Assembly: GCA_041648665.1 (NCBI GenBank)
Contig: JBAZOP010000002.1
Coordinates: forward strand, 50,262-114,261
Source of the DNA: a bacterium
GTDB taxonomy: Bacteria; UBA10199; 2-02-FULL-44-16; JAAZCA01
Length of the DNA stretch: 64,000 nt
Reading direction: 5' to 3'
Numbering within the stretch: the stretch's first letter is position 1; every line of letters starts with the position of its first letter. The notes under the pieces are model-generated. The model had not been told where the DNA came from. It saw only the letters and a program-made list of their open reading frames with translations, and made no database searches. Positions 7,399 through 47,195 of the stretch are shown in pieces. The position numbers and the translations under genes were made by a program.

Positions 7399-8478
7399 TC
7401 ACCCAGGAGTATAACCGCCGCTGGCGCGTTTGTCAACAGGTAAAACGCCTGGTTCCAGCGCACACGTGTGCGCCCCCTCCCCAGCGGGCCCCCACCCCAC
7501 GTCCAGCGGCTCCGCAGGTGGCCGGTACTCGCCCGCGTCCCGCCCGGCCGCGCGCCCCCGCTTAGCCCCCCCGGGGCCCGGGGCCAGGAACAGCCGCCAG
7601 AACCCCCCCACGAGGGCCTCGATGCTGGGCGCCGGGGCCAGCCGGCCCTGCGTGGTGGCCGCCACCGCCTCCCACCGCCCCACCGCGGCCCCCACCGTCC
7701 GCGCCACCAGCGCCTCCCCGTGCGCCCCCACCAGCGCCGCCACGCGCGCCCGGGTCCGGGGTGCCCACGCCGGCTCCGCCGCCACAGCGGGGCCGTAGCG
7801 GGCCTCCAGCGCAGCCACGTACACCGCCCGGATCCGATCCACCGCCCCCGGATCCCCCTCCCCTCCCTCGCTGCTGCCTTCTTCGATCTCCGTTTCGAGA
7901 TCGATCGCGCGCGCTACGCGCGGGGGGGGGATCTGTTCCTGTTCCTGTTCCTGTTCCTGTTCCTGGATCGGGGATGGCGTCCCGATGCCATCCGGTATGC
8001 CATCCGGTATGCCATCGAGAAGGCATCGCGCATGGCATCCGGAAGGCATCCGGAACGCCTTCCTGAAGGCTTTCAGGAAGGCAGGGGAGAGCCCCTCGCA
8101 CAAGGCTTCCAACAGGTGGAAAAAACTGCCCTTTAGCGGGCTACTGGGCAGCTCATCGAACGCCCGCGCCCACGATTTCAGCGCGTTCAGACTATTGGGC
8201 GTGTTGTACCGCAGGAAGTGCGGCAGCAGCACGACCTGGGCGTGCTCGTCGTACAGGGCGAACCCCTGCGCTTCGGCCTCCCGGAACGCGGCGATGTAGC
8301 GATCGAAGGGCCAGCGCTTCTCCGCCGCCAGCGCCTCCAGGCTGGCCTTGTACAGGCCGAACGGCGACGAGAGCGGCGTGGTTAGCAGGTGCAGGAAGAC
8401 CAGCTGGCAATCATCCGAGGCAAAGGGGAACTTGTCGTCGTTCCAGAGCAGGCAGTGCACCGTGCGGTACCGGCTCAT
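7399..8478 (-). CDS. putative replication initiation / replisome-organiser-like protein with internal repeat linker
   Basis: The N-terminal domain HCLLWNDDKFPFASDDCQLVFLHLL resembles phage replication-organiser N-domains. A DGIPDGIPDGIG and EQEQEQEQEQ linker follows. The C-terminal tail is translated across the promoter and palindrome, so the true 3' end is uncertain. Start at MSRYRTV overlaps the RHH stop as ATGA. Confidence 0.4.
   Translation of the reverse strand: MSRYRTVHCLLWNDDKFPFASDDCQLVFLHLLTTPLSSPFGLYKASLEALAAEKRWPFDRYIAAFREAEAQGFALYDEHAQVVLLPHFLRYNTPNSLNALKSWARAFDELPSSPLKGSFFHLLEALCEGLSPAFLKAFRKAFRMPSGCHARCLLDGIPDGIPDGIGTPSPIQEQEQEQEQEQIPPPRVARAIDLETEIEEGSSEGGEGDPGAVDRIRAVYVAALEARYGPAVAAEPAWAPRTRARVAALVGAHGEALVARTVGAAVGRWEAVAATTQGRLAPAPSIEALVGGFWRLFLAPGPGGAKRGRAAGRDAGEYRPPAEPLDVGWGPAGEGAHTCALEPGVLPVDKRASGGYTPG
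7403..7440 (-). promoter_or_regulatory. promoter, TTGACA, 17 nt, TATACT (conserved motif family)
   Basis: CTGTTGACAAACGCGCCAGCGGCGGTTATACTCC on the minus strand. The palindrome GCGCACACGTGTGCGC lies about 15 nt upstream of the -35 box. Confidence 0.5.
7933..7962. repeat. (CTGTTC)x5 hexanucleotide tandem repeat (encodes EQEQEQEQEQ on the minus strand)
   Basis: Read directly from the sequence. Lies inside the putative replication gene. Confidence 0.8.
7985..8017. repeat. 12-nt tandem repeat ATGCCATCCGGT, about 2.7 copies (encodes DGIPDGIPDGI)
   Basis: Read directly from the sequence, adjacent to the hexamer repeat. Confidence 0.75.
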
Positions 8479-8687
8479 GCTCCACCCCCCGGCGTGCACA
8501 CGTGTTCGCTCGGTTGCCCGGGATCCAGGTCCCGCAGGGTGCCCGCCTGCGCCTCGCGCTCGAACGCCTCATTGACCAGGGCCGACATCAGGTCCTGCAT
8601 GTTGACGCCGCGCACGGCGGCGAGCAGCTTCAGGCGCATCCGGGCTTCCGCGCCCAGGTGCACCGCCTTCCGATCATCGCTCGGCAT
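8475..8687 (-). CDS. ribbon-helix-helix (Arc/CopG-like) DNA-binding protein
   Basis: MPSDDRKAVHLGAEARMRLKLLAAVRGVNMQDLMSALVNEAFERE shows a beta-strand followed by two helices. SD GGAGGG sits 6 nt upstream. It is the first gene of the RHH-replication operon and diverges from the IS. Confidence 0.55.
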   Translation of the reverse strand: MPSDDRKAVHLGAEARMRLKLLAAVRGVNMQDLMSALVNEAFEREAQAGTLRDLDPGQPSEHVCTPGGGA

Positions 8688-8884
8688 TCTGTCCCTCCGG
8701 ATTGTGGAGGCAGACGGTACCATACCCAGATCACGGCAGGCAAGTACTTTCCGTGGGAAAGTGACGCGGCCTACTCTTCCTGCTCGCTGTTGTGGGATCG
8801 GTTGCCGGACATCAATGCCTCCGCGAGGGGACCGTCGTCTTTAGGCGACGGGAGAATCGCGGCCCCTCTCCGCTTGCTTTTCTG

Positions 8885-10115
8885 TTGACTTTCATCTGTT
8901 CATATGGGACTCTTGCATTGTGAGACGGACAATCATCATCGCGCTTGAGCCAGCCAACGAGCAGCTTGCTGCACTCACGGAGACCTGCGACCTGTTCACC
9001 GAGGTCTTCAACGCCGTCTGCACAGGCGGGTGGCAACACGCCGAAAAGAACGGGGTCCGCCTCCACCACGCCTTCTACCGGCCCCTCAAGGCCCAGCACC
9101 CGACCCTCGTGAGCGACCTGCATGTCCAGGCCCGCGTCAAAGCTACGGAGGCTATCCGAAGCGCGTTGGCCCTCAAACGCAAAGGCAAGAAAGTCTCCTG
9201 CCCGCACTCCACCTCTTGCCCCCCGCGCTACAACCTGCACACCTTCAAGATCGACTGGGCTTCCCGCACCGTGCGCCTGTCCACTACGGCGGGGCGCCAG
9301 ACCATCCGGTTCGCCGTCCCCGTTCACGCGGAGCGGTACGCCGAGCATCCAGTGGACACTGCCGATCTCGTCTGCTGCGAAGGTCGTTGGGCCATGCACG
9401 TCTCCGTCACCGTGCCTGCGCCCGCCGTCGATCCCGTCAATGACGTGGTGGGCGTGGACCTCGGGCTGGCCCAGCCAGCCGTCACGTCCAACAACCAGTT
9501 CCTGGGCAAAAAGGCATGGCGCTCTATCGAGAACCGGCTCTTCAAGCTGAAGCGCAGGCTGCAAGAACGAGGAACCAAGAGCGCCAAGCGCCATCTCAAA
9601 AAGATCCACAAGTCGCAAGCCAGGTTCCGCAGAGATTGCGACCACGTGCTCTCCAAGAAAGTTGTCCAGGCTTGCCCCGCTGGCGGCACGATCGTCTTGG
9701 AAAACCTGACCGACATCCGCAAGCGGGCACGGGCCAAGAGCAACACCGAAGCCAAGCGCCGCCTTCACGGGTGGTCCTTCGCGCAGATCAAGATCTTCAT
9801 CGCGTACAAAGCCGAGGAACGGGGTTGTACGGTGGCCGGGGTCGATCCCCGGCATACCTCGCAACGATGCTCTCGCTGTGGACACACGGCGAAGAACAAC
9901 CGCCGCTCCCGCGCCGTGTTCAAGTGTCGGAAGTGTGGATTTTCCCTCCACGCCGACTTGAACGCAGCTCGCAACATCGCGGCCAAGTACCAGACCCACG
10001 TCGGCATGCCCGATATGGGTGGGCACCCTGTCAACGTGCCTATCGCGGGAGTGGGTGAACTCGTTCATTCAGCTACCTGCAAGCCGCCCGCTTTAGCTGG
10101 CGGTCGTTGACGTAG
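8885..10115 (+). mobile_element. IS200/IS605-family TnpB-only insertion (IS1341-like); ends not defined
   Basis: Carries the intact TnpB gene, has lower GC than its flanks, and the CTGTTGAC promoter-like motif sits at its 5' side. Its 3' end overlaps the convergent gene 10073..10810. Confidence 0.5.
8920..10110 (+). CDS. tnpB: TnpB (OrfB) RuvC-like RNA-guided endonuclease, IS200/IS605 family
   Basis: RuvC-I VVGVDLGL, RuvC-II TIVLENLTD, zinc finger CSRCGH...CRKCG, RuvC-III HADLNAARNIA. All catalytic D/E/D residues are present. Confidence 0.8.
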   Translation: MRRTIIIALEPANEQLAALTETCDLFTEVFNAVCTGGWQHAEKNGVRLHHAFYRPLKAQHPTLVSDLHVQARVKATEAIRSALALKRKGKKVSCPHSTSCPPRYNLHTFKIDWASRTVRLSTTAGRQTIRFAVPVHAERYAEHPVDTADLVCCEGRWAMHVSVTVPAPAVDPVNDVVGVDLGLAQPAVTSNNQFLGKKAWRSIENRLFKLKRRLQERGTKSAKRHLKKIHKSQARFRRDCDHVLSKKVVQACPAGGTIVLENLTDIRKRARAKSNTEAKRRLHGWSFAQIKIFIAYKAEERGCTVAGVDPRHTSQRCSRCGHTAKNNRRSRAVFKCRKCGFSLHADLNAARNIAAKYQTHVGMPDMGGHPVNVPIAGVGELVHSATCKPPALAGGR

Positions 10116-39704: not shown

Positions 39705-40325
39705 TCAGATCACGCTCCAGGTCATCGCGCCGTCGATGTTCATGTAGATGACCCCGGTCAATGTATCACGGTAGGGCGTGCCCGCCAGGGCCGTCACCAC
39801 CCCGTTCGGGTTCCCCGCGCCCGTCATCCAGCCTGATCCACCCGTCGCCGGGAAGGCGAACAGGGTTGTAGGCGTCAGCAAGTCCAGCCGCGCACCGTTG
39901 AACCACTGGATGGTGTAGTCGTCGTTGACCACGCCGAAGACCATGCGCGAGGAAGAGATTTCCGTCTGGCTCACGTCCAGCTCCCACTGGACGGCCTGGG
40001 GACCCACGGCACCGGGCTGCAGGTCGGCGCAGATGAGACCACCCCGCACCAGCGTGAGGTCGTTGGGCCCAACTGAGATCTCGACCTGCAGCGTGCGCGA
40101 GATGAAGATGGCAGAGTCCACCTGGGTGAACGTCCAAGCTCCCGGCGCGTTCGTGACCTCGACGGTCGGAAGCTGCCGATGGATCAGTGTGAGGTGCTCC
40201 AGCAGCGCAAACGCCGTCGCATCCGCCCCCTGGGCGAAGGTGCCGAACAGCTGCTGCCACTTCTGCCAGTCCGCGTTCCACGGCGGGATCGGCCACTGGA
40301 AGCGTCCTGTGTACTCGTTGGCCAT
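39705..40325 (-). CDS. tail/baseplate protein (gpI-position)
   Basis: Follows the baseplate J-like gene. Confidence 0.4.
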   Translation of the reverse strand: MANEYTGRFQWPIPPWNADWQKWQQLFGTFAQGADATAFALLEHLTLIHRQLPTVEVTNAPGAWTFTQVDSAIFISRTLQVEISVGPNDLTLVRGGLICADLQPGAVGPQAVQWELDVSQTEISSSRMVFGVVNDDYTIQWFNGARLDLLTPTTLFAFPATGGSGWMTGAGNPNGVVTALAGTPYRDTLTGVIYMNIDGAMTWSVI

Positions 40326-40335
40326 CCTCGTCCTC

Positions 40336-42555
40336 CTACGCCGCCAGGTTGCTGATCGCCAGCGACCCCAGCGTGATGATCCGGTTGGCGGCCGGCACGA
40401 GGTTGCCCTCCGGATCGATATCCGAGGGCCCCGTGATGGCGATGTTCGTGTAGACCATGCCGACCGCGGCCTCCTCCACCACTCGGTGCAGGTCCGACAG
40501 GTACAGCGGCTCGTTGAAGTCGCGGCCCTTCAGCAGCTCCACGATGGCCGCCCGCGCCTTGGCCGCCTCCTCCTCGTACACGTAGGCTGGCCCAACGAGC
40601 AGCTCGACCTCGATCTGGGCCGGCACCAGCGCAGCGGCACCGTTTACCACCTGCACCTGCTGCGTGACCTCCTTGATGCCGTCCAGGTACGCCTGGAGTC
40701 CCATGATGAGCCCAACCGATGGCGCCACGTAGTTGCCATCGGCGTCCAGCGACAGGATGGGCACCTGCACGTAGTTGCTCAGGCAGTCGTCGCTGAACAT
40801 CTGGGCGATGCGGACGCGCATCGCATCGGTCTTGACCACGATGTTGGCCTGCAGATCCTCCGCTTTGCCGTCGATATCCGCTGCCTCAGCGCCCAGCGTG
40901 ATCACCAGCGTCTGCAAGCTCGTGGCTGCCGCATCCACGGCCACCTTGATCGCCGGGATCGAGGTGTCCGGCGCCACTGGCGCGTCGTTCGTGAGGGCGT
41001 CCAGCGTGGGGTTGAGCAGGGTGCTGACCGTCAAGTCCAGCATGCCCCCCGCCGCCTGGACCGCGGCCAGGGCCGTCGCCCCCTGCCCCGTAATGCCAGT
41101 CGCCTGGCCGATGGCCGACGTCAGCTCATCAAGTACGTGCGTGCGCGCCGCGCTCGGCGCGAAATTCGCATCATCACTGACGTACGCGTACAAAACCTCC
41201 AACGCCGTCTTCTGGTTCGCTGACGTATCGTTGACGACGGCGATGGCTGTCTCGGCCGTCGTTCCCTGCGCCCGGGCAGCCTGCACGTTGACCTTGGCGC
41301 TCGTAACCCATCCCACGAGGCTGTCCGCCCCCAAAGCCCGCAGATTCTCCAGGGCAGCCATCTGCGCCTGGATCGTGGCCACGTACGTGCTCATGGTGGT
41401 GGCCCCGGTGGCCAGATCCGCCTCCAGGGCAGCCACAGCCGCGACGTACGCTACCAAGTACGCCTCCACATCCTCGACCAGGTTGTTGAAGGTCAGGTCC
41501 GCGTAGGTGCCGCGGGGGTTGAACGCGTACGCCTTGGCCACCGACCCGTACAATGGGTCCACGAAGCTATTGGACAGGGCGTCGTAGTCCAGGGCCGTGA
41601 TGGCCGCGCCGCGCGCAGCGAACGACAGCGGGGCCAGGCGCCGGGCGTGGTCGGTCTCCTCGGGGTCCGTGCCGCCCGTAGGGGCCACCTCGTGGTCCAC
41701 CTCGAACGTGACCTCGGCCCCGCCAATGGAGAGCACGTCGATGCTGCTGCTGATGCTGTGCGCCTTGGGCTCGTTGCCCTTGATCCCGTCGATCACGACG
41801 AAGCGGAGCTTGACCTCCGCACCCGTAGGCGGGATGGCGCCCGCGATGCCATCGCCGAACCGCACGAGGGGCGGCTGCGCCGTGTAGTCCACCTCGAACT
41901 GCTCGTCGTTGGCGTAGGTGAGGAAGGTGCGCTCCTCCCACTCCAAGCCGTCCACCCAGGCTTCCACGCTCAGATCAGCCAGGTAGCGATCCTCGGGCAC
42001 GCTCGACAGCGGGTAGGTCTGGTTGGCCGCCCCGTTCGCCGTGAACGTCAGCAGGAACGTGTCGCCCTGGCGCACGCTCACTGTCCGCTGGGTTCCTGGA
42101 GCCAACGCCAGGGGCTCAACGAGCGCCGCGTAGGACTCGTAGACGAGCCCCGCCGGCCCCTGGTACCGCCACCGCGCGGGCATCGTGAAGGGCCCCGTGG
42201 TGCCATCGGGGAAGGTCAGCGAGAGTTCCACGCTGGCCGCCGCGGCCGGACGCATCTTGTAGCCCAGCTGCCGCACGATCCTGTTCGCGGCGCTCGGCGT
42301 GCGGGCTGTCTCCAGGAAGCAGTCCGACGCCGTCCGGTCCAGGTACCACTGGAGCTGCGCCGTGGCGTAGGCCATCATCTCGATGAGCATGATGCCCTGC
42401 GTCGTAGTGGCGTAGTCGTTGTACACCGTGGTATAGACCGCCTTCAGCCGCCGCAGCAAGTCGTCGAAGATCGACGCGTAGTCGCGGGCCGCGTACTTCA
42501 CCGTGTTGAGCGGCGCCCGGTCAGCTACCAGCGGCTCGTATGGATCGGTTGCCAT
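40336..42555 (-). CDS. baseplate J-like protein (gp6/gpJ/Mu gp47 family)
   Basis: N-terminal ARDYASIFDDLLRRLKAVY...GIMLIEMMAYATAQLQWYL is the typical Baseplate_J signature. Confidence 0.6.
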   Translation of the reverse strand: MATDPYEPLVADRAPLNTVKYAARDYASIFDDLLRRLKAVYTTVYNDYATTTQGIMLIEMMAYATAQLQWYLDRTASDCFLETARTPSAANRIVRQLGYKMRPAAAASVELSLTFPDGTTGPFTMPARWRYQGPAGLVYESYAALVEPLALAPGTQRTVSVRQGDTFLLTFTANGAANQTYPLSSVPEDRYLADLSVEAWVDGLEWEERTFLTYANDEQFEVDYTAQPPLVRFGDGIAGAIPPTGAEVKLRFVVIDGIKGNEPKAHSISSSIDVLSIGGAEVTFEVDHEVAPTGGTDPEETDHARRLAPLSFAARGAAITALDYDALSNSFVDPLYGSVAKAYAFNPRGTYADLTFNNLVEDVEAYLVAYVAAVAALEADLATGATTMSTYVATIQAQMAALENLRALGADSLVGWVTSAKVNVQAARAQGTTAETAIAVVNDTSANQKTALEVLYAYVSDDANFAPSAARTHVLDELTSAIGQATGITGQGATALAAVQAAGGMLDLTVSTLLNPTLDALTNDAPVAPDTSIPAIKVAVDAAATSLQTLVITLGAEAADIDGKAEDLQANIVVKTDAMRVRIAQMFSDDCLSNYVQVPILSLDADGNYVAPSVGLIMGLQAYLDGIKEVTQQVQVVNGAAALVPAQIEVELLVGPAYVYEEEAAKARAAIVELLKGRDFNEPLYLSDLHRVVEEAAVGMVYTNIAITGPSDIDPEGNLVPAANRIITLGSLAISNLAA

Positions 42556-42629
42556 GGCGATCTTACCATTTCACAAACAGGACGAGATGCCGCTTGACAT
42601 TCGCCCCAACGTGACCCATATTGTCTCCT

Positions 42630-42764
42630 ATGAGACGCGAAAACTTCAAGGTCAACCTGGATCCCGACTTGGCCGCCTGGCTCCGCGCCGAGGCCGCCCG
42701 CCGCCGCTGCTCCTTCTCGCAGGTCGTGCGGGAACTCATCGCCGCCGCCATGGCCCAAAAATGA
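42630..42764 (+). CDS. ribbon-helix-helix small protein (44 aa), translationally coupled to TnpB
   Basis: Hand-translated MRRENFKVNLDPDLAAWLRAEAARRRCSFSQVVRELIAAAMAQK. Its stop overlaps the tnpB ATG as ATGA. Confidence 0.45.
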   Translation: MRRENFKVNLDPDLAAWLRAEAARRRCSFSQVVRELIAAAMAQK

Positions 42765-43957
42765 TCCTGGCCCAGCGCATCCGGCTCGCCCCCAACAACG
42801 TCCAGGCGAGCTTCCTGGAGCGCTGCGCCGGTGCGGCCCGCTTCACCTACAACTGGGGCCTGGCCCGCTGGCAGGAAATCCACGCCGTCGGCGGCACGCC
42901 CTCCTGGCGCACCCTCAACGCCGAGATCAACGCCCGGAAGGACCGCGACCTGGGGTGGCTCCGCGATCTTCCATGGGCCGTCCCCAACACCGCCCTCGCC
43001 GACCTCGGGCGCGCCTTCGGCCACTTCTTCCGGCGGGTGAAGGCCGGCCAGCGCCCCGGCTACCCGCGCTTCAAGGCCAAGAAACGCTGCACCCCCGCCT
43101 TCGCCATCGAGGGCCGCGCGATCCACTTCGACGGCCGCCGCGTGCACCTCCCCAAGCTCGGCTGGGTGCGTACCCGCCAGCCCCCCCGCTTCCCCGGCCG
43201 CGTGCTGAGCGCACGCTTCTCGAAACACGCCGGCCACTGGGACCTCGCTATCCAAGTCGAGATCGACGAAACCCGCTGGACCTACCCCCACCGCTGCGAA
43301 ACCCAAGCAGCGGTCGGCGTGGACCTCGGCGTGGTCGACCTCGCCGTGCTCTCCACCGGCGAACACGTCCCGGCCCCCCGCAGCCTGCGGCACCACGCCG
43401 CCCAACTCCGGAGGTTGAACAAGGAACTGTCCCGCCGCACCCGCGGCGGCCAGAACTGGCAGAAAACGAAGGCGAAGCTCGGGCTCCTGCACGAGCACAT
43501 TGCCCACGTGCGGCACGCCGCCACCCACGCGCTGACCGCCTCCCTCGTCCACCACTTCCGCTGGATCGGCATCGAGGACCTGCACGTCGCCGCGATGATG
43601 CGAGGAAGGCTCGCCACCTCCCTCCAGGATGCCGCGATGGCCGAGGTTCGCCGTCAACTCGCTTACAAGGCGCCCCTCGCCGGGAGCACCGTGGTCGTCG
43701 CCGACCGCTTCTACCCGAGCAGCAAGACGTGCGCCACCTGCGGCGTCATCTACGCCGACCTCGCCCTGAACGAGCGCCGGTGGACCTGCGAAAGCTGCGG
43801 GGCCGAGCACGACCGCGACGAGAACGCCGCCGAGAACCTGTACCAATTGGCCGCCGCCCAGGCGGTGACAGCCTGCCGCCACGAGAGCGCTGGCGCCCTT
43901 CGGGACGCGCAACTCTCGCTTGGGCAGGAATCGGGCCACGCTGTTAGCTTCGGTTAG
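42761..43957 (+). CDS. tnpB: TnpB (OrfB) RuvC-like endonuclease, IS200/IS605 family
   Basis: AVGVDLGVVD, IGIEDLHV, CATCG...CESCG, HDRDENAAENL. The catalytic triad is intact. Start at MILAQRIRL; the track extension is upstream junk. Confidence 0.8.
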   Translation: MILAQRIRLAPNNVQASFLERCAGAARFTYNWGLARWQEIHAVGGTPSWRTLNAEINARKDRDLGWLRDLPWAVPNTALADLGRAFGHFFRRVKAGQRPGYPRFKAKKRCTPAFAIEGRAIHFDGRRVHLPKLGWVRTRQPPRFPGRVLSARFSKHAGHWDLAIQVEIDETRWTYPHRCETQAAVGVDLGVVDLAVLSTGEHVPAPRSLRHHAAQLRRLNKELSRRTRGGQNWQKTKAKLGLLHEHIAHVRHAATHALTASLVHHFRWIGIEDLHVAAMMRGRLATSLQDAAMAEVRRQLAYKAPLAGSTVVVADRFYPSSKTCATCGVIYADLALNERRWTCESCGAEHDRDENAAENLYQLAAAQAVTACRHESAGALRDAQLSLGQESGHAVSFG

Positions 43958-43982
43958 CATCGTTTTAGTCCCGAATGGGATG

Positions 43983-44411
43983 TCATCCACCTGCCAGCGG
44001 CAGCGTCACCTGCGTCTGCTGGGTCTGCGGCTGTCCCACCCTGCGGTACAGCACGTCCACGATGATCGCTGTCTCTACCCCGTCCGCCTTCTCGCTCAGG
44101 CGCGAGTCCACGGCCAGCACCTCCGCCTGCGGCACGAAGGTCTCGATCGCCTGCGTCACCTCGCTGGCGACGCGCGCTTGCAACAGCGGAGTCATGTTGT
44201 TGAAGATCAGCCGGTGGATGTTCACCCCCATGTCCGCATGCATCAGCCGCTCGTTCGTCCCCGTCAGCATCAGCGCCACGATCGAGCAGAACAGCGCCGC
44301 ATCCGGGTCCGCCAGCGCCGGGAACCCCTCCTTCCCCAACTGGAAGGGGAACGCGAAGGTCTTGACGACCTGCGCATCGGAGACGGGCGGTGGCGCGTTG
44401 ACCGTCGGCAT
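43983..44411 (-). CDS. baseplate assembly protein W (gp25-like, GPW_gp25)
   Basis: FPFQLGKEGFPA...NIHRLIFNNMTPLLQARVAS. Confidence 0.65.
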   Translation of the reverse strand: MPTVNAPPPVSDAQVVKTFAFPFQLGKEGFPALADPDAALFCSIVALMLTGTNERLMHADMGVNIHRLIFNNMTPLLQARVASEVTQAIETFVPQAEVLAVDSRLSEKADGVETAIIVDVLYRRVGQPQTQQTQVTLPLAGG

Positions 44412-44477
44412 CTTCCTACCCTATCACGCCAGCGCGCGAAAGGCACGCTGCTGGACCAGCGAACACGTGTGCGCCGA

Positions 44478-44819
44478 TCAGTCGAGGGGGCATCCTGGCA
44501 TCTCCGGTAGGCCCGGCAGCCCCGGGATCGCCGGGATCGGCAACCCGGGGATGGGAATCGCCAGCTTCAGCGTCGGCAACCCCAGCGACAGCCCCACACT
44601 TGGGAGCCCTGGCAGCCCTGGCAGCCCCGGGGGGGACGGGAGCGCGAACGGCAGCCCCGGCACCGGGATCGCCAGCGTCAGGGAGGGCAGCCCCAGCGAC
44701 ACGCCAAAGGACGGGAGGCTGGGCAGCCCTGGCAGCCCCGGGATCGCCGGGATCGGTAGCCCGGGCACGGGGATCGCCAGCGCCAGCGTGGGCGGCGTCG
44801 GGATCCGGCAGTTCGACAT
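44478..44819 (-). CDS. Pro/Leu/Gly-rich (GLP)n repeat protein
   Basis: Strong SD GAAGGAG 8 nt upstream of ATG. About 35-aa units (LAIPVPGLPIPAIPGLPGLPSLPSFGVSLGLPSLT) repeated roughly 2.5 times. Confidence 0.45.
   Translation of the reverse strand: MSNCRIPTPPTLALAIPVPGLPIPAIPGLPGLPSLPSFGVSLGLPSLTLAIPVPGLPFALPSPPGLPGLPGLPSVGLSLGLPTLKLAIPIPGLPIPAIPGLPGLPEMPGCPLD
44490..44800. repeat. about 105-nt tandem repeat, roughly 2.5 copies, underlying the GLP-repeat protein
   Basis: Repeated PGLPGLP / LAIP(V/I)PGLP blocks visible in the translation and in the DNA. Confidence 0.5.
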
Positions 44820-44834
44820 GGATGCGCTCCTTCG

Positions 44835-45815
44835 TCATGCGACGTACACCTTGGTCGACAGCTCCTTGCCCATCGTAGGCGGTGGCTGCGCCCCGGGGGC
44901 CACCGGGCTCCCCGGCGTTGGCGTCCCGATGAGGTGGCCCGCTGCGCCATGGGTGATGGCCCAGATCATGAGCTTAGTCCCCAGCACAGCGGGCTCGCTC
45001 GCCCCCTTGCCCAACATGACCGTGCCCGCGTTAGCCGCGAACTGCTGCGAGCAGTCGGCGACCACGTTGTCCCCCGTGATCGTGATGTTCTTGCCGTCGA
45101 TGCCGATGGCCCCGCCGCTCTTCGTGGCCAGCGTGATCTTGTCGTCGCCCAGCATCAGCAGCGACGTGACCTCCTGCTGGTCGTTGGCGGTCATGATGCT
45201 GGTCTCCGCCTTCGTAGCGCTCATGAAGATCGTGCTACCGTTCTGGTTTTCGATCTGCACCGCGCCGTCCTTGTCCATCGCCAGGAAGACCGGGCTGGGC
45301 GCCCCCGCCCCGTCGCCCTTGCACAGCATGATGTGGAGATCCTCGGGGTCGTCCGACATGCGCAGGAAGTGACCCGCGCGCGTGCGGATGCCCTTCCGCA
45401 ACGCACCCTCCGCATCAAAGGTGTCGCTGGCTTTCTCCGCGATGAGGTAGCCCCCCATGTAGACGGGAAATTCCGGGTCGCCGTGCTGGAACTGCATCCA
45501 TACCGCCGCGCCGACATCCGGCGGGTGGAACAGTCCGCTCACCTGCTTGGTTTCCGGGTCCACCGCCAGCCCCGGCATGCATGGCCAGGCCCACCACCCC
45601 TTCCCCACCTGATCGGGGCGCCGCACGCCAACGGCGGGGCACAGCGCTTGAATGCGGCCCCGGTTGTCCGGGTCGGCGTTGTTCACCACCGTGCCGGGGT
45701 AGATGCCGTAGTAGCGCTTGGCGAACCCCTCGATTCCAATGCGCGCCAGCGTATCACACAGCCACCCGATCGGGTCCAACCGGCGCCTGTTCGCATCTGG
45801 GCGGTTCCCTAACAT
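44835..45815 (-). CDS. baseplate hub/spike protein (gpV / Mu gp45-like, Phage_base_V OB-fold)
   Basis: GTVVNNADPDNRGRIQALCPAVG is the typical gpV/VgrG N-terminal motif. Confidence 0.6.
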   Translation of the reverse strand: MLGNRPDANRRRLDPIGWLCDTLARIGIEGFAKRYYGIYPGTVVNNADPDNRGRIQALCPAVGVRRPDQVGKGWWAWPCMPGLAVDPETKQVSGLFHPPDVGAAVWMQFQHGDPEFPVYMGGYLIAEKASDTFDAEGALRKGIRTRAGHFLRMSDDPEDLHIMLCKGDGAGAPSPVFLAMDKDGAVQIENQNGSTIFMSATKAETSIMTANDQQEVTSLLMLGDDKITLATKSGGAIGIDGKNITITGDNVVADCSQQFAANAGTVMLGKGASEPAVLGTKLMIWAITHGAAGHLIGTPTPGSPVAPGAQPPPTMGKELSTKVYVA

Positions 45816-45818
45816 GAT

Positions 45819-47195
45819 CTACTCCGGCACCTGTCCCGCGGGCGTCGTCTTCTTTTCGCCCTCTGGATCTACGCCGCCAGCCCCCTGGCGCATGACGGTC
45901 AGGCTCATCTCGTAGCTGCCCGGCCCCCACGTGTGGGTCGCCTTCTGCACAAGGTAGGGGCCGTTGTAGATCTCGCCGGCCCCCGCGAGGTTGACGTACA
46001 TGCCCGGGATCACCCAGGGCAAGCCCAGCGACGTGATGACGCCCTGCTGCGCTGGGTTCCCAGCCGTTTGCCGCCAATCCGCAACGTTCTGAGCGCGGCT
46101 CGCTCCTGCTGCTCCAGGAGGCATGGGCTCACTCGCGTAAACAGCTGGCGTGCCATCCTGCTTGACGCCGTCTCCGATCAGTTCTCCACCTCCCTCATCT
46201 GCGAGGGACAAATCCTGCTGGATCGCCGGCAACGACCCAGCCGTCGCCACCTGCTGCTCCTCTGGCAGCGCAACCTTCTCCACAACCTTTCCCGTGTCCT
46301 GATCGATGTAGGCGATCAGCACACCCTTGCCTGCTTGATCATCCCCACCAACCAGCCACGTCGCGCTCGCCCCTCCCCCTTCCGGGGCCCAACTCAGGCA
46401 CGGGAAGGTGGACGTAGACAAGTCCACGACCCCGCGCAAGCGAAATGTCGGCCGCGGCAACGTAGACGGATCCGCCTTAGATCCGGTCGCAGCCTGCTTG
46501 ATGAACCCGAGCGACACCTCCAGCTCAGTAGCAACGTAGACCGTGTTGATCCGCGAGCTAGGATCTGTTACGTCCGGCCCGATCCAGTAGGTCAGGTTCA
46601 TGAGAGCGCAGATCCGCTTGATCGCTTCCCAAGCCGTCAGCCTCGCATACGCCAGCGGGTGCCACATCGTTTTGAACGATGCGAAGGAGTCCGGGTCATA
46701 TGACGCAGCAATCTGACACGCATCCAGCGCCCCAGGAGAAAGCGCGGGCAGCAGACCCATCGCCGCGATGCACTTCTCCAGCATGCTCTTCGGCGACTGG
46801 TCCAGCACGACCAGCTCCTTCGAGATTGTGTAGTGCGCCCCCTCCGCTGTCACCTGCACGGTGATCTGGCCCGACAGGCCGTTCGCGTCCAACGTGAGGC
46901 CATCGCCCCCAGCCTTCAGGAATCCCCCGAACCACGGCGTCCACCAGTCGGGCCGCGATGCGTACCCGATGCGCGCCTGCGCGTGCATGCCAATGGCAAA
47001 CGGCGTGTCGCTCCCCAGCATCGCGATCGCCTCGTCGTACGGCGCATCGAACGTGAGCTGCAAGGTGGCCGTCCGGCCAAACTCGTACAGCATCGCGACG
47101 CCCGTCAGGAACGGCGCGCTCGGGGGCGCAAAGATCCACTCCCTGCCCGATTTTGGGCTCTTGAACCGAACCTGCGCCACGGGATCGGTGAACAT
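45819..47195 (-). CDS. tail protein D-like (late control D / baseplate hub)
   Basis: Right position (after TMP and X) and size. Weak motif similarity only. Confidence 0.45.
   Translation of the reverse strand: MFTDPVAQVRFKSPKSGREWIFAPPSAPFLTGVAMLYEFGRTATLQLTFDAPYDEAIAMLGSDTPFAIGMHAQARIGYASRPDWWTPWFGGFLKAGGDGLTLDANGLSGQITVQVTAEGAHYTISKELVVLDQSPKSMLEKCIAAMGLLPALSPGALDACQIAASYDPDSFASFKTMWHPLAYARLTAWEAIKRICALMNLTYWIGPDVTDPSSRINTVYVATELEVSLGFIKQAATGSKADPSTLPRPTFRLRGVVDLSTSTFPCLSWAPEGGGASATWLVGGDDQAGKGVLIAYIDQDTGKVVEKVALPEEQQVATAGSLPAIQQDLSLADEGGGELIGDGVKQDGTPAVYASEPMPPGAAGASRAQNVADWRQTAGNPAQQGVITSLGLPWVIPGMYVNLAGAGEIYNGPYLVQKATHTWGPGSYEMSLTVMRQGAGGVDPEGEKKTTPAGQVPE

Follow-up and report, generated by a model that had tools for sequence, protein, structure and literature searches.

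An element of 1,426 bp occupies positions 42556-43981 on the forward strand of the window (the whole 64,000-nucleotide stretch of DNA that was analysed), wedged between the gp25/W and gpJ/gp6-like baseplate wedge genes, both of which lie on the opposite strand. It carries a short arc-like ribbon-helix-helix (RHH) gene, the coding region of which sits within the element boundaries, followed by tnpB and an ωRNA scaffold (Table 1). In three related phages (L316/L317, L318 and L319) W and J are spaced by 0-2 nt, and gpJ-like homologues lie directly 3' of gpW in related phages (59-66% identity). A preliminary description of this DNA had held that W and J are normally adjacent and are split here by an oppositely oriented unit, and had suggested a comparison with phages lacking the insertion; the empty W-J junctions bear this out. 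The left boundary is placed at 42556 because the empty sites in L316, L318 and L319 and the alignment of left ends locate it there. The sequences flanking the element, CCAT on the left and GTCA on the right, show no target-site duplication. The element is thus inserted precisely between the gpW stop codon and the gpJ-like start codon, antisense to both genes. The range of 42600-43990 given in the preliminary description had located the element, but began too late to include the left end or the -35 hexamer and overran 9 nt into gpW.

Table 1. Features of the element and of its two flanking genes (positions are those of the window).
Feature	Position	Strand	Remarks
gpJ/gp6-like baseplate wedge subunit, 739 aa	40336-42555	-	PHROG 219, E=4e-28; start codon adjoins left end
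5' flanking motif CCAT (putative TAM)	42552-42555	+	CAT is the reverse complement of the gpJ-like start codon; TAM role inferred
Left end (LE)	42556-42593	+	short; fold -3.9 kcal/mol, z=-1.1; no significant subterminal hairpin
Element promoter TTGACA-17-CATATT	42594-42622	+	sigma-70; 10/12 consensus positions
arc-like ribbon-helix-helix gene, 44 aa	42630-42764	+	ATG at 42630; protein MRRENFKVNLDPDLAAWLRAEAARRRCSFSQVVRELIAAAMAQK
tnpB, RNA-guided nuclease, 398 aa	42761-43957	+	HTH_OrfB_IS605, OrfB_IS605 and Cas12f1-like_TNB (Pfam)
ωRNA scaffold	43849-43981	+	overlaps last 109 nt of tnpB; ends at right-end boundary
Putative guide GTCATCCACCTGCCAG	43982-43997	+	outside element; antisense to last codons and stop codon of gpW
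gp25/W baseplate wedge gene	43983-44411	-	PF04965; PHROG 261/43; stop codon 1 nt from right end

Two other placements of the ends were considered and rejected. A left boundary at 'ATC' (42560), with a stretch conserved in L002, L307 and L013 taken as flanking gene, disagrees with the gene calls and the left-end alignment, which put this stretch inside the left end and the boundary right after CAT. Symmetrical ends of the DDE/IS630 type were prompted by a 44-nt inverted repeat between the ends of L174; for the window, the best match between ends is 11 nt long and without target duplication, and the left ends of type-B relatives carry an IS200/IS605-like hairpin.

The carrier is a myovirus-like phage of ~161 kb, represented by a contig of a metagenome assembly. 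A blastn search in distant mode with positions 40000-46000 gave no match among GenBank phages, and a gpW query found no relative among viral contigs. Within the tail operon, the element breaks the translational coupling of W and J, and the J start codon of the element-bearing copy is preceded by only a weak Shine-Dalgarno-like motif. A terminator search on the operon strand found none.

In the 44-aa RHH protein, the beta strand is predicted at N5-V8. The RHH domain occupies residues 6-43 and matches the Pfam families FitA-like_RHH (E=3e-5) and RHH_1 (E=8e-4), both just under their curated cut-offs; RHH_1 is matched by 10 of 11 family members with a best E-value of 1.4e-7. The best match among solved structures is the RHH of antitoxin VapB26 (E=0.0096), and searches of NCBIfam and PHROGs gave no match. 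The stop codon TGA (42762-42764) overlaps the tnpB ATG (42761-42763) in a 4-nt ATGA. A word-index search with a 47-aa RHH query returned one protein only, and the family was recovered from translations of the DNA that precedes tnpB in related elements. At least 10 related elements have an RHH gene preceding tnpB, with an NTGA overlap in every one; carriers are the window element, L011, L001, L002/3, L013, L173, L307/L335, L320 and L330, and the gene also occurs alongside distant TnpBs in L180 and L026. The dN/dS ratio is 0.09-0.34 in eight of the nine pairs for which it could be estimated, and 0.55 for the window against the subtype-B relative L002. Judged on these comparisons of sequence, the RHH gene is real and under purifying selection. 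About one third of the close TnpB relatives (L172, L174, L014 and L334) are without RHH, which is therefore dispensable.

The TnpB protein aligns over its full length with the ISDra2 TnpB structures 8BF8, 8EXA and 8H1J (E=1.7e-58). The RuvC residues D188, E272 and D353 and the four zinc-finger cysteines (CxxC...CxxC) are present and conserved, and the gene has no Shine-Dalgarno sequence of its own. The promoter of Table 1 is the sole sigma-70-like site in 42300-44300, where 0.2 would be expected, and CTTGAC(A/G) followed by a -10 hexamer at the same spacing is found in all RHH-bearing relatives. As 7 nt separate the end of the -10 hexamer from the RHH ATG, a leaderless mRNA is implied, and the RHH gene is probably leaderless; read by eye from the sequences, the spacing from the -10 hexamer to the start codon is 6-7 nt in 10 of 11 elements. 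A pattern TGACA...GTGAC...TGTC around the promoter, likewise read by eye, is a candidate operator. The preliminary description had proposed an RHH ORF ending in ATGA onto tnpB, a catalytically intact TnpB and a promoter belonging to the unit itself; each of these was recovered, and the RHH gene proved to be conserved with TnpB homologues, the overlap included.

The ωRNA lay beyond what could be seen in the preliminary description, which had advised a search for right-end structure downstream of the tnpB stop codon. The scaffold was found by the covariance model R1 (134.8 bits, E=8e-37) as a single copy in the window. In an alignment of 11 sequences, compensatory changes occur in 21 of 36 base pairs; in an alignment of 34 sequences, 90.5% of cells are paired, double changes occur in 35 of 36 pairs and the covariation score is 0.543, compared to 0.19 for shuffled and at most 0.11 for slid alignments. 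A permissive Rfam search over 42000-45000 returned two chance-level matches only and no ωRNA family. All relatives diverge directly after ...GAATGGGAT, a point also read as right after GGGAT. An exact 15-mer search for this right end in viral contigs gave 64 matches, of which 6 were real right ends. The flank that follows supplies the putative guide, for which we assumed the 16-nt length of ISDra2; this 16-mer is unique in the window. Many positions of the guide are mismatched at the gpW ends of the three related phages.

At the left side, the boundary falls right after CAT at 9 of 10 independent insertion sites, and after CCAT at 6 of the 10. At all nine CAT sites an antisense ORF of 144-939 aa starts at the flank motif. 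Instead of targeting, the position at start codons could reflect survivorship, given how densely phage genomes are packed with genes. The left ends themselves differ between relatives. Type-B relatives carry a GGCGAAC-N5-GTTCGCC hairpin 16 nt from the boundary (z=-4.0 in L330 and -2.7 in L013), whereas the left end before the -35 hexamer is 38 nt long in the window copy and 14 nt in L320, neither with a significant hairpin.

No Y1 transposase or resolvase was found among the 136 window ORFs of at least 90 aa, so that the element is taken to be non-autonomous; neither was found among the called genes around L320, L330, L334 and L335. The contigs of L003, L173 and L174 contain second copies and ωRNA-only miniature copies, the latter at 271-409 and 1588-1734 of L174 and also at 7175-7314 of L303. 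All insertions examined coincide with gene boundaries, and for most of them the context is phage-like. The nuclease gene lies between conserved genes and is present in some related phages and absent from others, with similar placements in L320, L330 and L335. Scans by alignment against metagenome and genome contigs relied on very general motifs, and the matches listed are mostly relatives of 30-44% identity; among those listed for one genome per species the clade was not seen above 44% identity, which is weak evidence that bacterial genomes lack the close clade. The preliminary description had suggested a unit different from a classical IS. This view is not supported, because the defined ends, the conserved 5' flank motif, the ωRNA at the right end, the empty sites and the extra and miniature copies in relatives identify a classical, non-autonomous element of the IS200/IS605 type.

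Combined, these observations indicate that the locus is probably occupied by a non-autonomous, TnpA-less, IS1341-type member of the IS200/IS605 family with an Arc-type autorepressor RHH, the TnpB of which would cut element-free W-J junctions and thereby promote retention or homing. The promoter would give rise to one leaderless transcript covering arc, tnpB and the ωRNA. As tnpB is without a Shine-Dalgarno sequence, TnpB is expected to rely on reinitiation and would be made solely by termination-reinitiation once RHH has been translated. The RHH dimer may bind candidate TGAC-type half-site repeats over the -35 hexamer and position +1 and so repress its own operon, which would keep the nuclease at a low level and reduce collisions with transcription of the tail operon. 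TnpB-ωRNA is predicted to recognize 5'-CCAT followed by GTCATCCACCTGCCAG, that is, the intact W-J junction present only in element-free genomes. Repair of the cut junction from an element-bearing genome would then lead to retention of the element, or to homing into related co-infecting phages. Since the window copy has no left-end hairpin and no TnpA was found, homing seems a likelier route of spread than peel-and-paste transposition. Autorepression is the best reading of the RHH gene, given the analogous Arc repressors found in IS605 elements (bioRxiv 10.64898/2026.09.24.754181); of the alternatives offered in the preliminary description, "regulated or toxin-antitoxin-like", the regulated unit is thus retained on this analogy, and the toxin-antitoxin-like unit is unsupported for a bare 44-aa RHH paired with a canonical nuclease and guide RNA in a mobile element.

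Of the rival readings, mobilization in trans is the least improbable. The element could be an ordinary transposon that is moved by peel-and-paste through a Y1 TnpA from the host or from another element, with TnpB only restoring excised copies and RHH possibly acting on the ends or on transposition instead of transcription. TnpB is ISDra2-like, the 5' flank motif is conserved and insertion leaves no target duplication. The left-end hairpin is conserved in type-B relatives, at a position that we liken to IS608-type ends, and the ωRNA-only copies of L174 and L303 resemble TnpA-mobilized derivatives; together, hairpin and miniature copies point to a TnpA acting in trans rather than to homing alone. 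We nevertheless regard this account as unlikely: no TnpA was found in the 64-kb window or in the vicinity of any relative examined, the left ends of the window copy and L320 are without a significant hairpin, and all insertions examined fall at gene boundaries in mostly phage-like contexts. The low identities among the matches listed, one genome per species, weigh in the same direction as weak evidence.

In a toxin-antitoxin-like module, TnpB would be a toxin nuclease and RHH an antitoxin that binds TnpB directly and autoregulates the operon, so that phage or host becomes addicted. An RHH gene upstream of, and translationally coupled to, a nuclease gene is the typical layout of type II systems, the top Pfam and PDB matches of the RHH are antitoxin domains (FitA-like and VapB26), and an archaeal RHH/MazE-TnpB clade has been put forward as a toxin-antitoxin pair (PMC10691335). 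What makes this very improbable here is that the domain fills the protein and leaves no C-terminal toxin-binding segment, that the nuclease site is the canonical D/E/D, unlike the rearranged site of the archaeal clade, and that close relatives live without RHH, which would be intolerable for a toxin; moreover, the unit is mobile rather than fixed, as shown by its ends, its extra copies, the empty sites and an ωRNA that covaries and carries a guide specific to the locus. A role as a co-opted weapon or regulator of the phage, with RHH timing its action in infection, is if anything more doubtful still. TnpB-ωRNA would then destroy co-infecting relatives with an intact W-J junction, or the RNA or the convergent promoter would tune baseplate expression. 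The guide does match a conserved structural-gene end, which only relatives free of the element keep intact; the element runs antisense to the tail operon under a promoter of its own, and intron homing endonucleases are known to mediate competition between phages (PMC11620839). However, nothing sets this reading apart from plain selfish homing, the mismatches between the guide and the gpW ends of three related phages imply that the known relatives would not be cut, and the intact nuclease makes a pure repressor role of the TldR type unlikely.

Extending the homing model beyond the window, we tentatively suggest that a largely phage-borne clade of TnpA-less arc-tnpB-ωRNA elements might act as RNA-guided, free-standing homing endonuclease genes for the stop-start junctions of phage operons. 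In such a clade the (C)CAT TAM would be the complement of the start codon of the downstream gene and the guide would read the end of the upstream gene; the left end, with an outward-facing antisense Shine-Dalgarno-like motif, could restore translation of the uncoupled gene, and the RHH module would be swapped independently of tnpB.

The pairing of RHH with TnpB is already known, having been noted in 2023 and its repression of promoters shown in 2026. The locus adds a clean phage example: arc and tnpB form one operon, read in the same direction, coupled in translation and probably leaderless; the ends are exact, empty sites serve as a control and the ωRNA covaries. The left end consistently adjoins a start codon across relatives. 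If (C)CAT is the TAM, this regularity would explain how elements with an RNA-guided nuclease live in gene-dense phage genomes without killing them, and, with TAM, guide and target all defined, RNA-guided homing between phages could be tested directly. The locus also provides a compact pair of ISDra2-like TnpB and ωRNA, possibly with a short TAM.

Among known systems, the TnpB-ωRNA of ISDra2 from Deinococcus radiodurans is similar in its full-length homology, identical domain order and TAM 5' of the left end (putative here), and in both cases the ωRNA begins inside the 3' part of tnpB, terminates with the right end and is guided by flanking sequence. ISDra2 is an autonomous element that encodes a Y1 TnpA and uses TTGAT as its TAM. 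The window element differs from it in having no TnpA, a (C)CAT flank motif, an RHH gene in the upstream position and an ωRNA without an Rfam match.

TnpB-associated Arc-like ORFs were first noted in 10.1101/2023.11.20.567912. Published Arc proteins now amount to a set of 10,374. Arc proteins of IS605 elements, including elements with arc and tnpB only, repress the element promoters, and some of them are 50 aa or less and missed by annotation (Moon, Zedaveinyte, Wiegand & Sternberg 2026, bioRxiv 10.64898/2026.09.24.754181). The window element resembles these in its small standalone RHH inside the element beside tnpB and in its own sigma-70 promoter. In "many of these systems" arc accompanies tnpA and is divergent from tnpB across a bidirectional promoter (bioRxiv 10.64898/2026.09.24.754181); here, in contrast, arc lies upstream of tnpB in the same direction with a 4-nt overlap, is probably leaderless, and TnpA is absent. 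Unlike the Arc-containing IS605 elements, the window element is phage-borne, and binding and repression by its RHH are predicted by analogy.

The archaeal RHH/MazE-TnpB clade was judged non-mobile, its catalytic site is rearranged and a toxin-antitoxin function was proposed for it (Altae-Tran et al. 2023, PMC10691335). It shares with the window element a small RHH or AbrB/MazE gene directly upstream of tnpB and enough sequence on the 3' side to accommodate a guide RNA, whereas the window element is mobile, phage-borne and endowed with a canonical active site. Homing into co-infecting phages has been discussed as a category (PMC13565253). The free-standing homing endonuclease genes of T4-like phages (Seg, Mob; PMC2988022) likewise place a nuclease gene between two conserved genes, with a patchy distribution among relatives; neither neighbour is disrupted and the target lies in the neighbouring conserved gene. 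Unlike in Seg and Mob, recognition in the homing that we infer here would rely on a guide RNA and a short TAM rather than on the protein, and self-immunity would result from the insertion splitting the TAM from its target rather than from sequence differences.

In the window, the gpW (gp25/W) gene and the gpJ/gp6-like baseplate wedge gene (J-like gene), both on the minus strand, are parted by an oppositely oriented unit carrying a promoter, a 44-aa ribbon-helix-helix (RHH) gene, tnpB and an ωRNA. Homologues of the 739-aa J-like protein (59-66% identity) were found on phage contigs of up to ~165 kb, and in three such phages the J-like gene directly follows gpW. The W/J junction is an overlapping TGATG in L319, TAG-C-ATG in L318 and TAA-AT-ATG in L316/L317. 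The minus strand of the window reads ...GGTGGATGAC, 1,426 nt, ATGGCAACC..., and deletion of 42556-43981 results in TGA-C-ATG, with the spacing seen in L318. W and J parted by the same sequence without TnpB was not observed in any of the related phages compared. The preliminary description had proposed an insertion of a TnpB element between these genes, against the direction of the tail genes, and comparison with phages lacking it bears this out; the RHH ORF, TnpB, promoter and flanking genes that it had listed are all present.

Features of the element and its flanks (window coordinates)
Feature	Position	Strand	Evidence
Baseplate wedge subunit (J-like), 739 aa	40336-42555	-	PHROG 219, E=4e-28
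5' flank CCAT, putative TAM	42552-42555	+	conserved flank at insertion sites
Sigma-70-like promoter TTGACA-17-CATATT	42594-42622	+	10/12 positions matched
RHH ORF, 44 aa, MRRENFKVNLDPDLAAWLRAEAARRRCSFSQVVRELIAAAMAQK	42630-42764	+	Pfam FitA-like_RHH, RHH_1
tnpB, 398-aa ORF	42761-43957	+	Pfam HTH_OrfB_IS605, OrfB_IS605, Cas12f1-like_TNB
ωRNA	43849-43981	+	covariance model, 134.8 bits
Putative guide GTCATCCACCTGCCAG	43982-43997	+	flank directly past right end
gp25/W	43983-44411	-	PF04965

In content, the source contig (161,166 bp; 158-165 kb in relatives) resembles a large myovirus-like phage, with genes for tail sheath, gp19-type tube, T4 baseplate proteins, gp25 and gpV besides NAD synthase and radical SAM genes, so a whole phage genome may have been binned as bacterial. 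Two overlapping ORFs of 140 and 113 aa (44416-44838, minus strand), which lie between gpW and the gpV-like gene, contain a repetitive Pro/Gly/Leu-rich stretch (PGLPIPAIPGLPGLP...) and had no Pfam or PHROG match. The phage with the empty junction TAA-AT-ATG carries a third type of TnpB (404 aa, 30% identical; L316 2371-3585, L317 1026-2240) just upstream of gpW, in the direction of the tail genes and overlapping the gpW start by 13 nt.

TnpB belongs to a large family (4,135 matches at E <=0.001; top non-identical match, 72% identity) and aligned over its full length with the ISDra2 TnpB structures 8BF8, 8EXA and 8H1J (E=1.7e-58). D188 (GVDLG), E272 (IEDL), D353 (HDRDxNAA) and the four zinc-finger cysteines, invariant or nearly so in an alignment of 46 homologues, are all retained, as expected of the catalytically intact enzyme first described. 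A 475-aa ORF (42563-43990, minus strand) runs antisense over the whole of tnpB in sequence of 66-69% GC and is most likely a compositional artefact; a translated reverse-strand ORF has been reported for a cyanophage tnpB in a preprint (10.64898/2026.02.14.705889). The window also contains a second, unrelated TnpB gene (8920-10110, plus strand; 396 aa, 26% identical to the first, OrfB_IS605 and TNB matches), antisense to its neighbours. An 82-aa ORF (8475-8723, minus strand) with a weak Antitox_RHH match (E=0.012, below cut-off) diverges from it across ~196 nt, and the two may be another arc-tnpB pair, arranged divergently as has been described for IS605 elements with Arc, their RHH repressor.

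The TGA of the 44-aa ORF overlaps the tnpB ATG as ATGA at 42761. Its Pfam matches (FitA-like_RHH, E=3e-5; RHH_1, E=8e-4) both lie slightly under the curated cut-offs; in the family obtained by translating DNA upstream of TnpB relatives, RHH_1 was matched by 10 of 11 proteins, and the family profile matched the RHH antitoxin VapB26 in the PDB (E=0.0096). An RHH ORF ends on the tnpB start in L011, L001, L002/L003, L013, L173, L307/L335, L320 and L330, whose TnpBs are 60-72% identical to that of the window, and is found also in L180 and L026, with TnpBs of just 39-42% identity; the overlap is NTGA (ATGA, GTGA or TTGA) in every RHH-bearing locus. No RHH was present upstream of tnpB in L172, L174, L014 and L334. 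Pairwise dN/dS was 0.09-0.34 in eight of nine estimable pairs and 0.55 between the window RHH and the subtype-B RHH of L002; in two further pairs dS was saturated, giving no ratio. By these comparisons, the RHH ORF is a genuine gene that moves together with tnpB. Two RHH subtypes were distinguished (window, L011, L320, L180 and L026; L001, L002, L013, L173, L307 and L330), and they are not distributed as TnpB similarity would predict: the nearest relatives of the window RHH accompany the TnpBs of 39-42% identity, while closer TnpBs pair with the other subtype. This suggests that a left-end/promoter/RHH module was swapped between elements. The left-end module of L334 (TnpB 70% identical) is different again, with three direct repeats GATCCCTGCCA(T/G)(A/G)TATT(T)CG at 2280-2500.

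The promoter noted earlier is the sole sigma-70-like site in 42300-44300 (0.2 expected). All RHH-bearing loci share CTTGAC(A/G), followed after ~17 nt by a -10 hexamer. Read by eye, 10 of 11 loci have 6-7 nt between this hexamer and the RHH start codon, which implies that the arc-tnpB mRNA would be leaderless. The tnpB start region of the window (GGCCCAAAAATGA) has no Shine-Dalgarno sequence of its own, so TnpB should be made by reinitiation following translation of the RHH gene. The pattern TGACA...GTGAC...TGTC(A), found around the promoter of the window and of L011, is no more than a candidate operator. No convincing terminator was found on the strand of the tail operon near the element.

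All close relatives share ...GTTAGCATCGTTYAAGTCYCGAATGGGAT just past the tnpB stop and diverge at once, which places the right end at 43981. The RNA gene was delimited by alignment of the last 260 nt; its extent follows from two loci without a TnpB ORF (L174 271-409 and L303 7175-7314), in which similarity is limited to the final ~135 nt. RNAalifold predicted 36 pairs from 11 sequences, with compensatory changes in 21. A covariance model built from this alignment found one copy in the window and, elsewhere, matches at the 3' end of TnpB genes as little as ~40% identical. In an alignment of 34 sequences, which was fitted to the model and thus favours the structure, 90.5% of cells pair, double changes occur in 35 of 36 pairs and the covariation score is 0.543 (0.19 shuffled, <=0.11 with slid partners). 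No Rfam family matched. The flank GTCATCCACCTGCCAG, which occurs once in the window, would be the guide; it lies antisense to the end of gpW, over the final codons with the stop codon. Copies reduced to a complete ωRNA, each with its own flank, were seen at L174 271-409 (+), L174 1588-1734 (-) and L303 7175-7314 (+), on phage contigs that also carry a full element; at least L174 271-409 resembles a miniature derivative in which the left and right ends are joined.

Left-end similarity begins right after CAT (six aligned type-B left ends, of relatives whose left end and RHH differ in kind from those of the window; gene calls for L320, L330 and L335). At nine of ten independent sites, an antisense ORF (144-939 aa) has its ATG start codon opposite this CAT. 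Six sites, including the window, have CCAT as the 5' flank, and the others GCAT, TCAT, ACAT or TAAT. The TAM of IS200/IS605 elements lies 5' of the left end, which makes (C)CAT a putative TAM and the empty junction CCAT|GTCATCCACCTGCCAG the predicted target. In L001 (5700-5760), the flank is AAT instead of CAT; its left end appears to give the antisense gene a TTG start, two more codons and a GGAAAGG motif, and the antisense ORF begins with the translational-GTPase-like IIAHIDAGKTT. A Shine-Dalgarno-like 4-mer lies on the antisense strand of the left end (first 20 nt) at seven of ten sites (L320, L335, L330, L002, L013, L173 and L001; background 22%, binomial P=0.002), 12-16 nt before the start codon of the flanking gene. 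The 20 nt before the J start in the window (tgtgaaatggtaagatcgcc; 42556-42575) contain no canonical 4-mer, only GGTAAG. The 4-mer gives the impression that elements provide a ribosome-binding site for the gene they have uncoupled; in the window, W-J coupling is broken by the insertion.

The preliminary description had read the unit as regulated or toxin-antitoxin-like rather than as a classical IS. IS605-family Arc proteins, some of <=50 aa and missed by annotation, bind and repress the promoter of their element, including elements with arc and tnpB only (2026 preprint, 10.64898/2026.09.24.754181). This analogy and the conserved layout of the promoter make an Arc-type autorepressor the best reading of the RHH, in keeping with regulation. 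A toxin-antitoxin pair has a precedent in an archaeal RHH/MazE-TnpB clade, proposed as such, with a rearranged active site and no mobility (PMC10691335); in contrast, the window TnpB has a canonical site in a mobile element. The RHH is moreover a bare 44-aa domain that close relatives do without, and the unit includes a guide RNA, so that such a pair is unlikely.

No Y1 transposase or resolvase was found in the 136 window ORFs of at least 90 aa or among the called neighbours of the relatives examined. Far from being something other than an IS, the arc-tnpB-ωRNA unit is itself an IS200/IS605-type element of the non-autonomous kind. Of the earlier reading, insertion and the coupled RHH are supported, regulation is the best reading, and the toxin-antitoxin and non-IS parts are not supported. 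Such an element may be mobilised in trans by a Y1 TnpA, as suggested by miniature copies in relatives and by a hairpin in type-B left ends (GGCGAAC-N5-GTTCGCC, 16 nt from the boundary; L330 z=-4.0, L013 z=-2.7). This hairpin is absent from the left ends of the window (38 nt) and L320 (14 nt), and since no TnpA was found, TnpB-guided homing fits the spread of the window copy better; homing into co-infecting phages is a category discussed in a 2026 review (PMC13565253). Within the subfamily that lacks the RHH, L174 has in its left end (7828-7871) 44 nt that repeat the right-end/ωRNA terminus (9179-9222) in inverted orientation (84%), and the left end of L172 (7841-7881) folds as a perfect 14-bp hairpin; no inverted right-end copy was seen in the window. 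These inverted ends are unusual for the IS200/IS605 family, described as without terminal inverted repeats.

What may be new is the placement at start codons, together with the possible ribosome-binding site that faces outward, both read from ten sites. TnpB-associated Arc-like RHH ORFs were reported in 2023 (10.1101/2023.11.20.567912) and phage-borne tnpB genes are known (10.64898/2026.02.14.705889); the RHH-TnpB pairing is already known, and the element joins a described kind.
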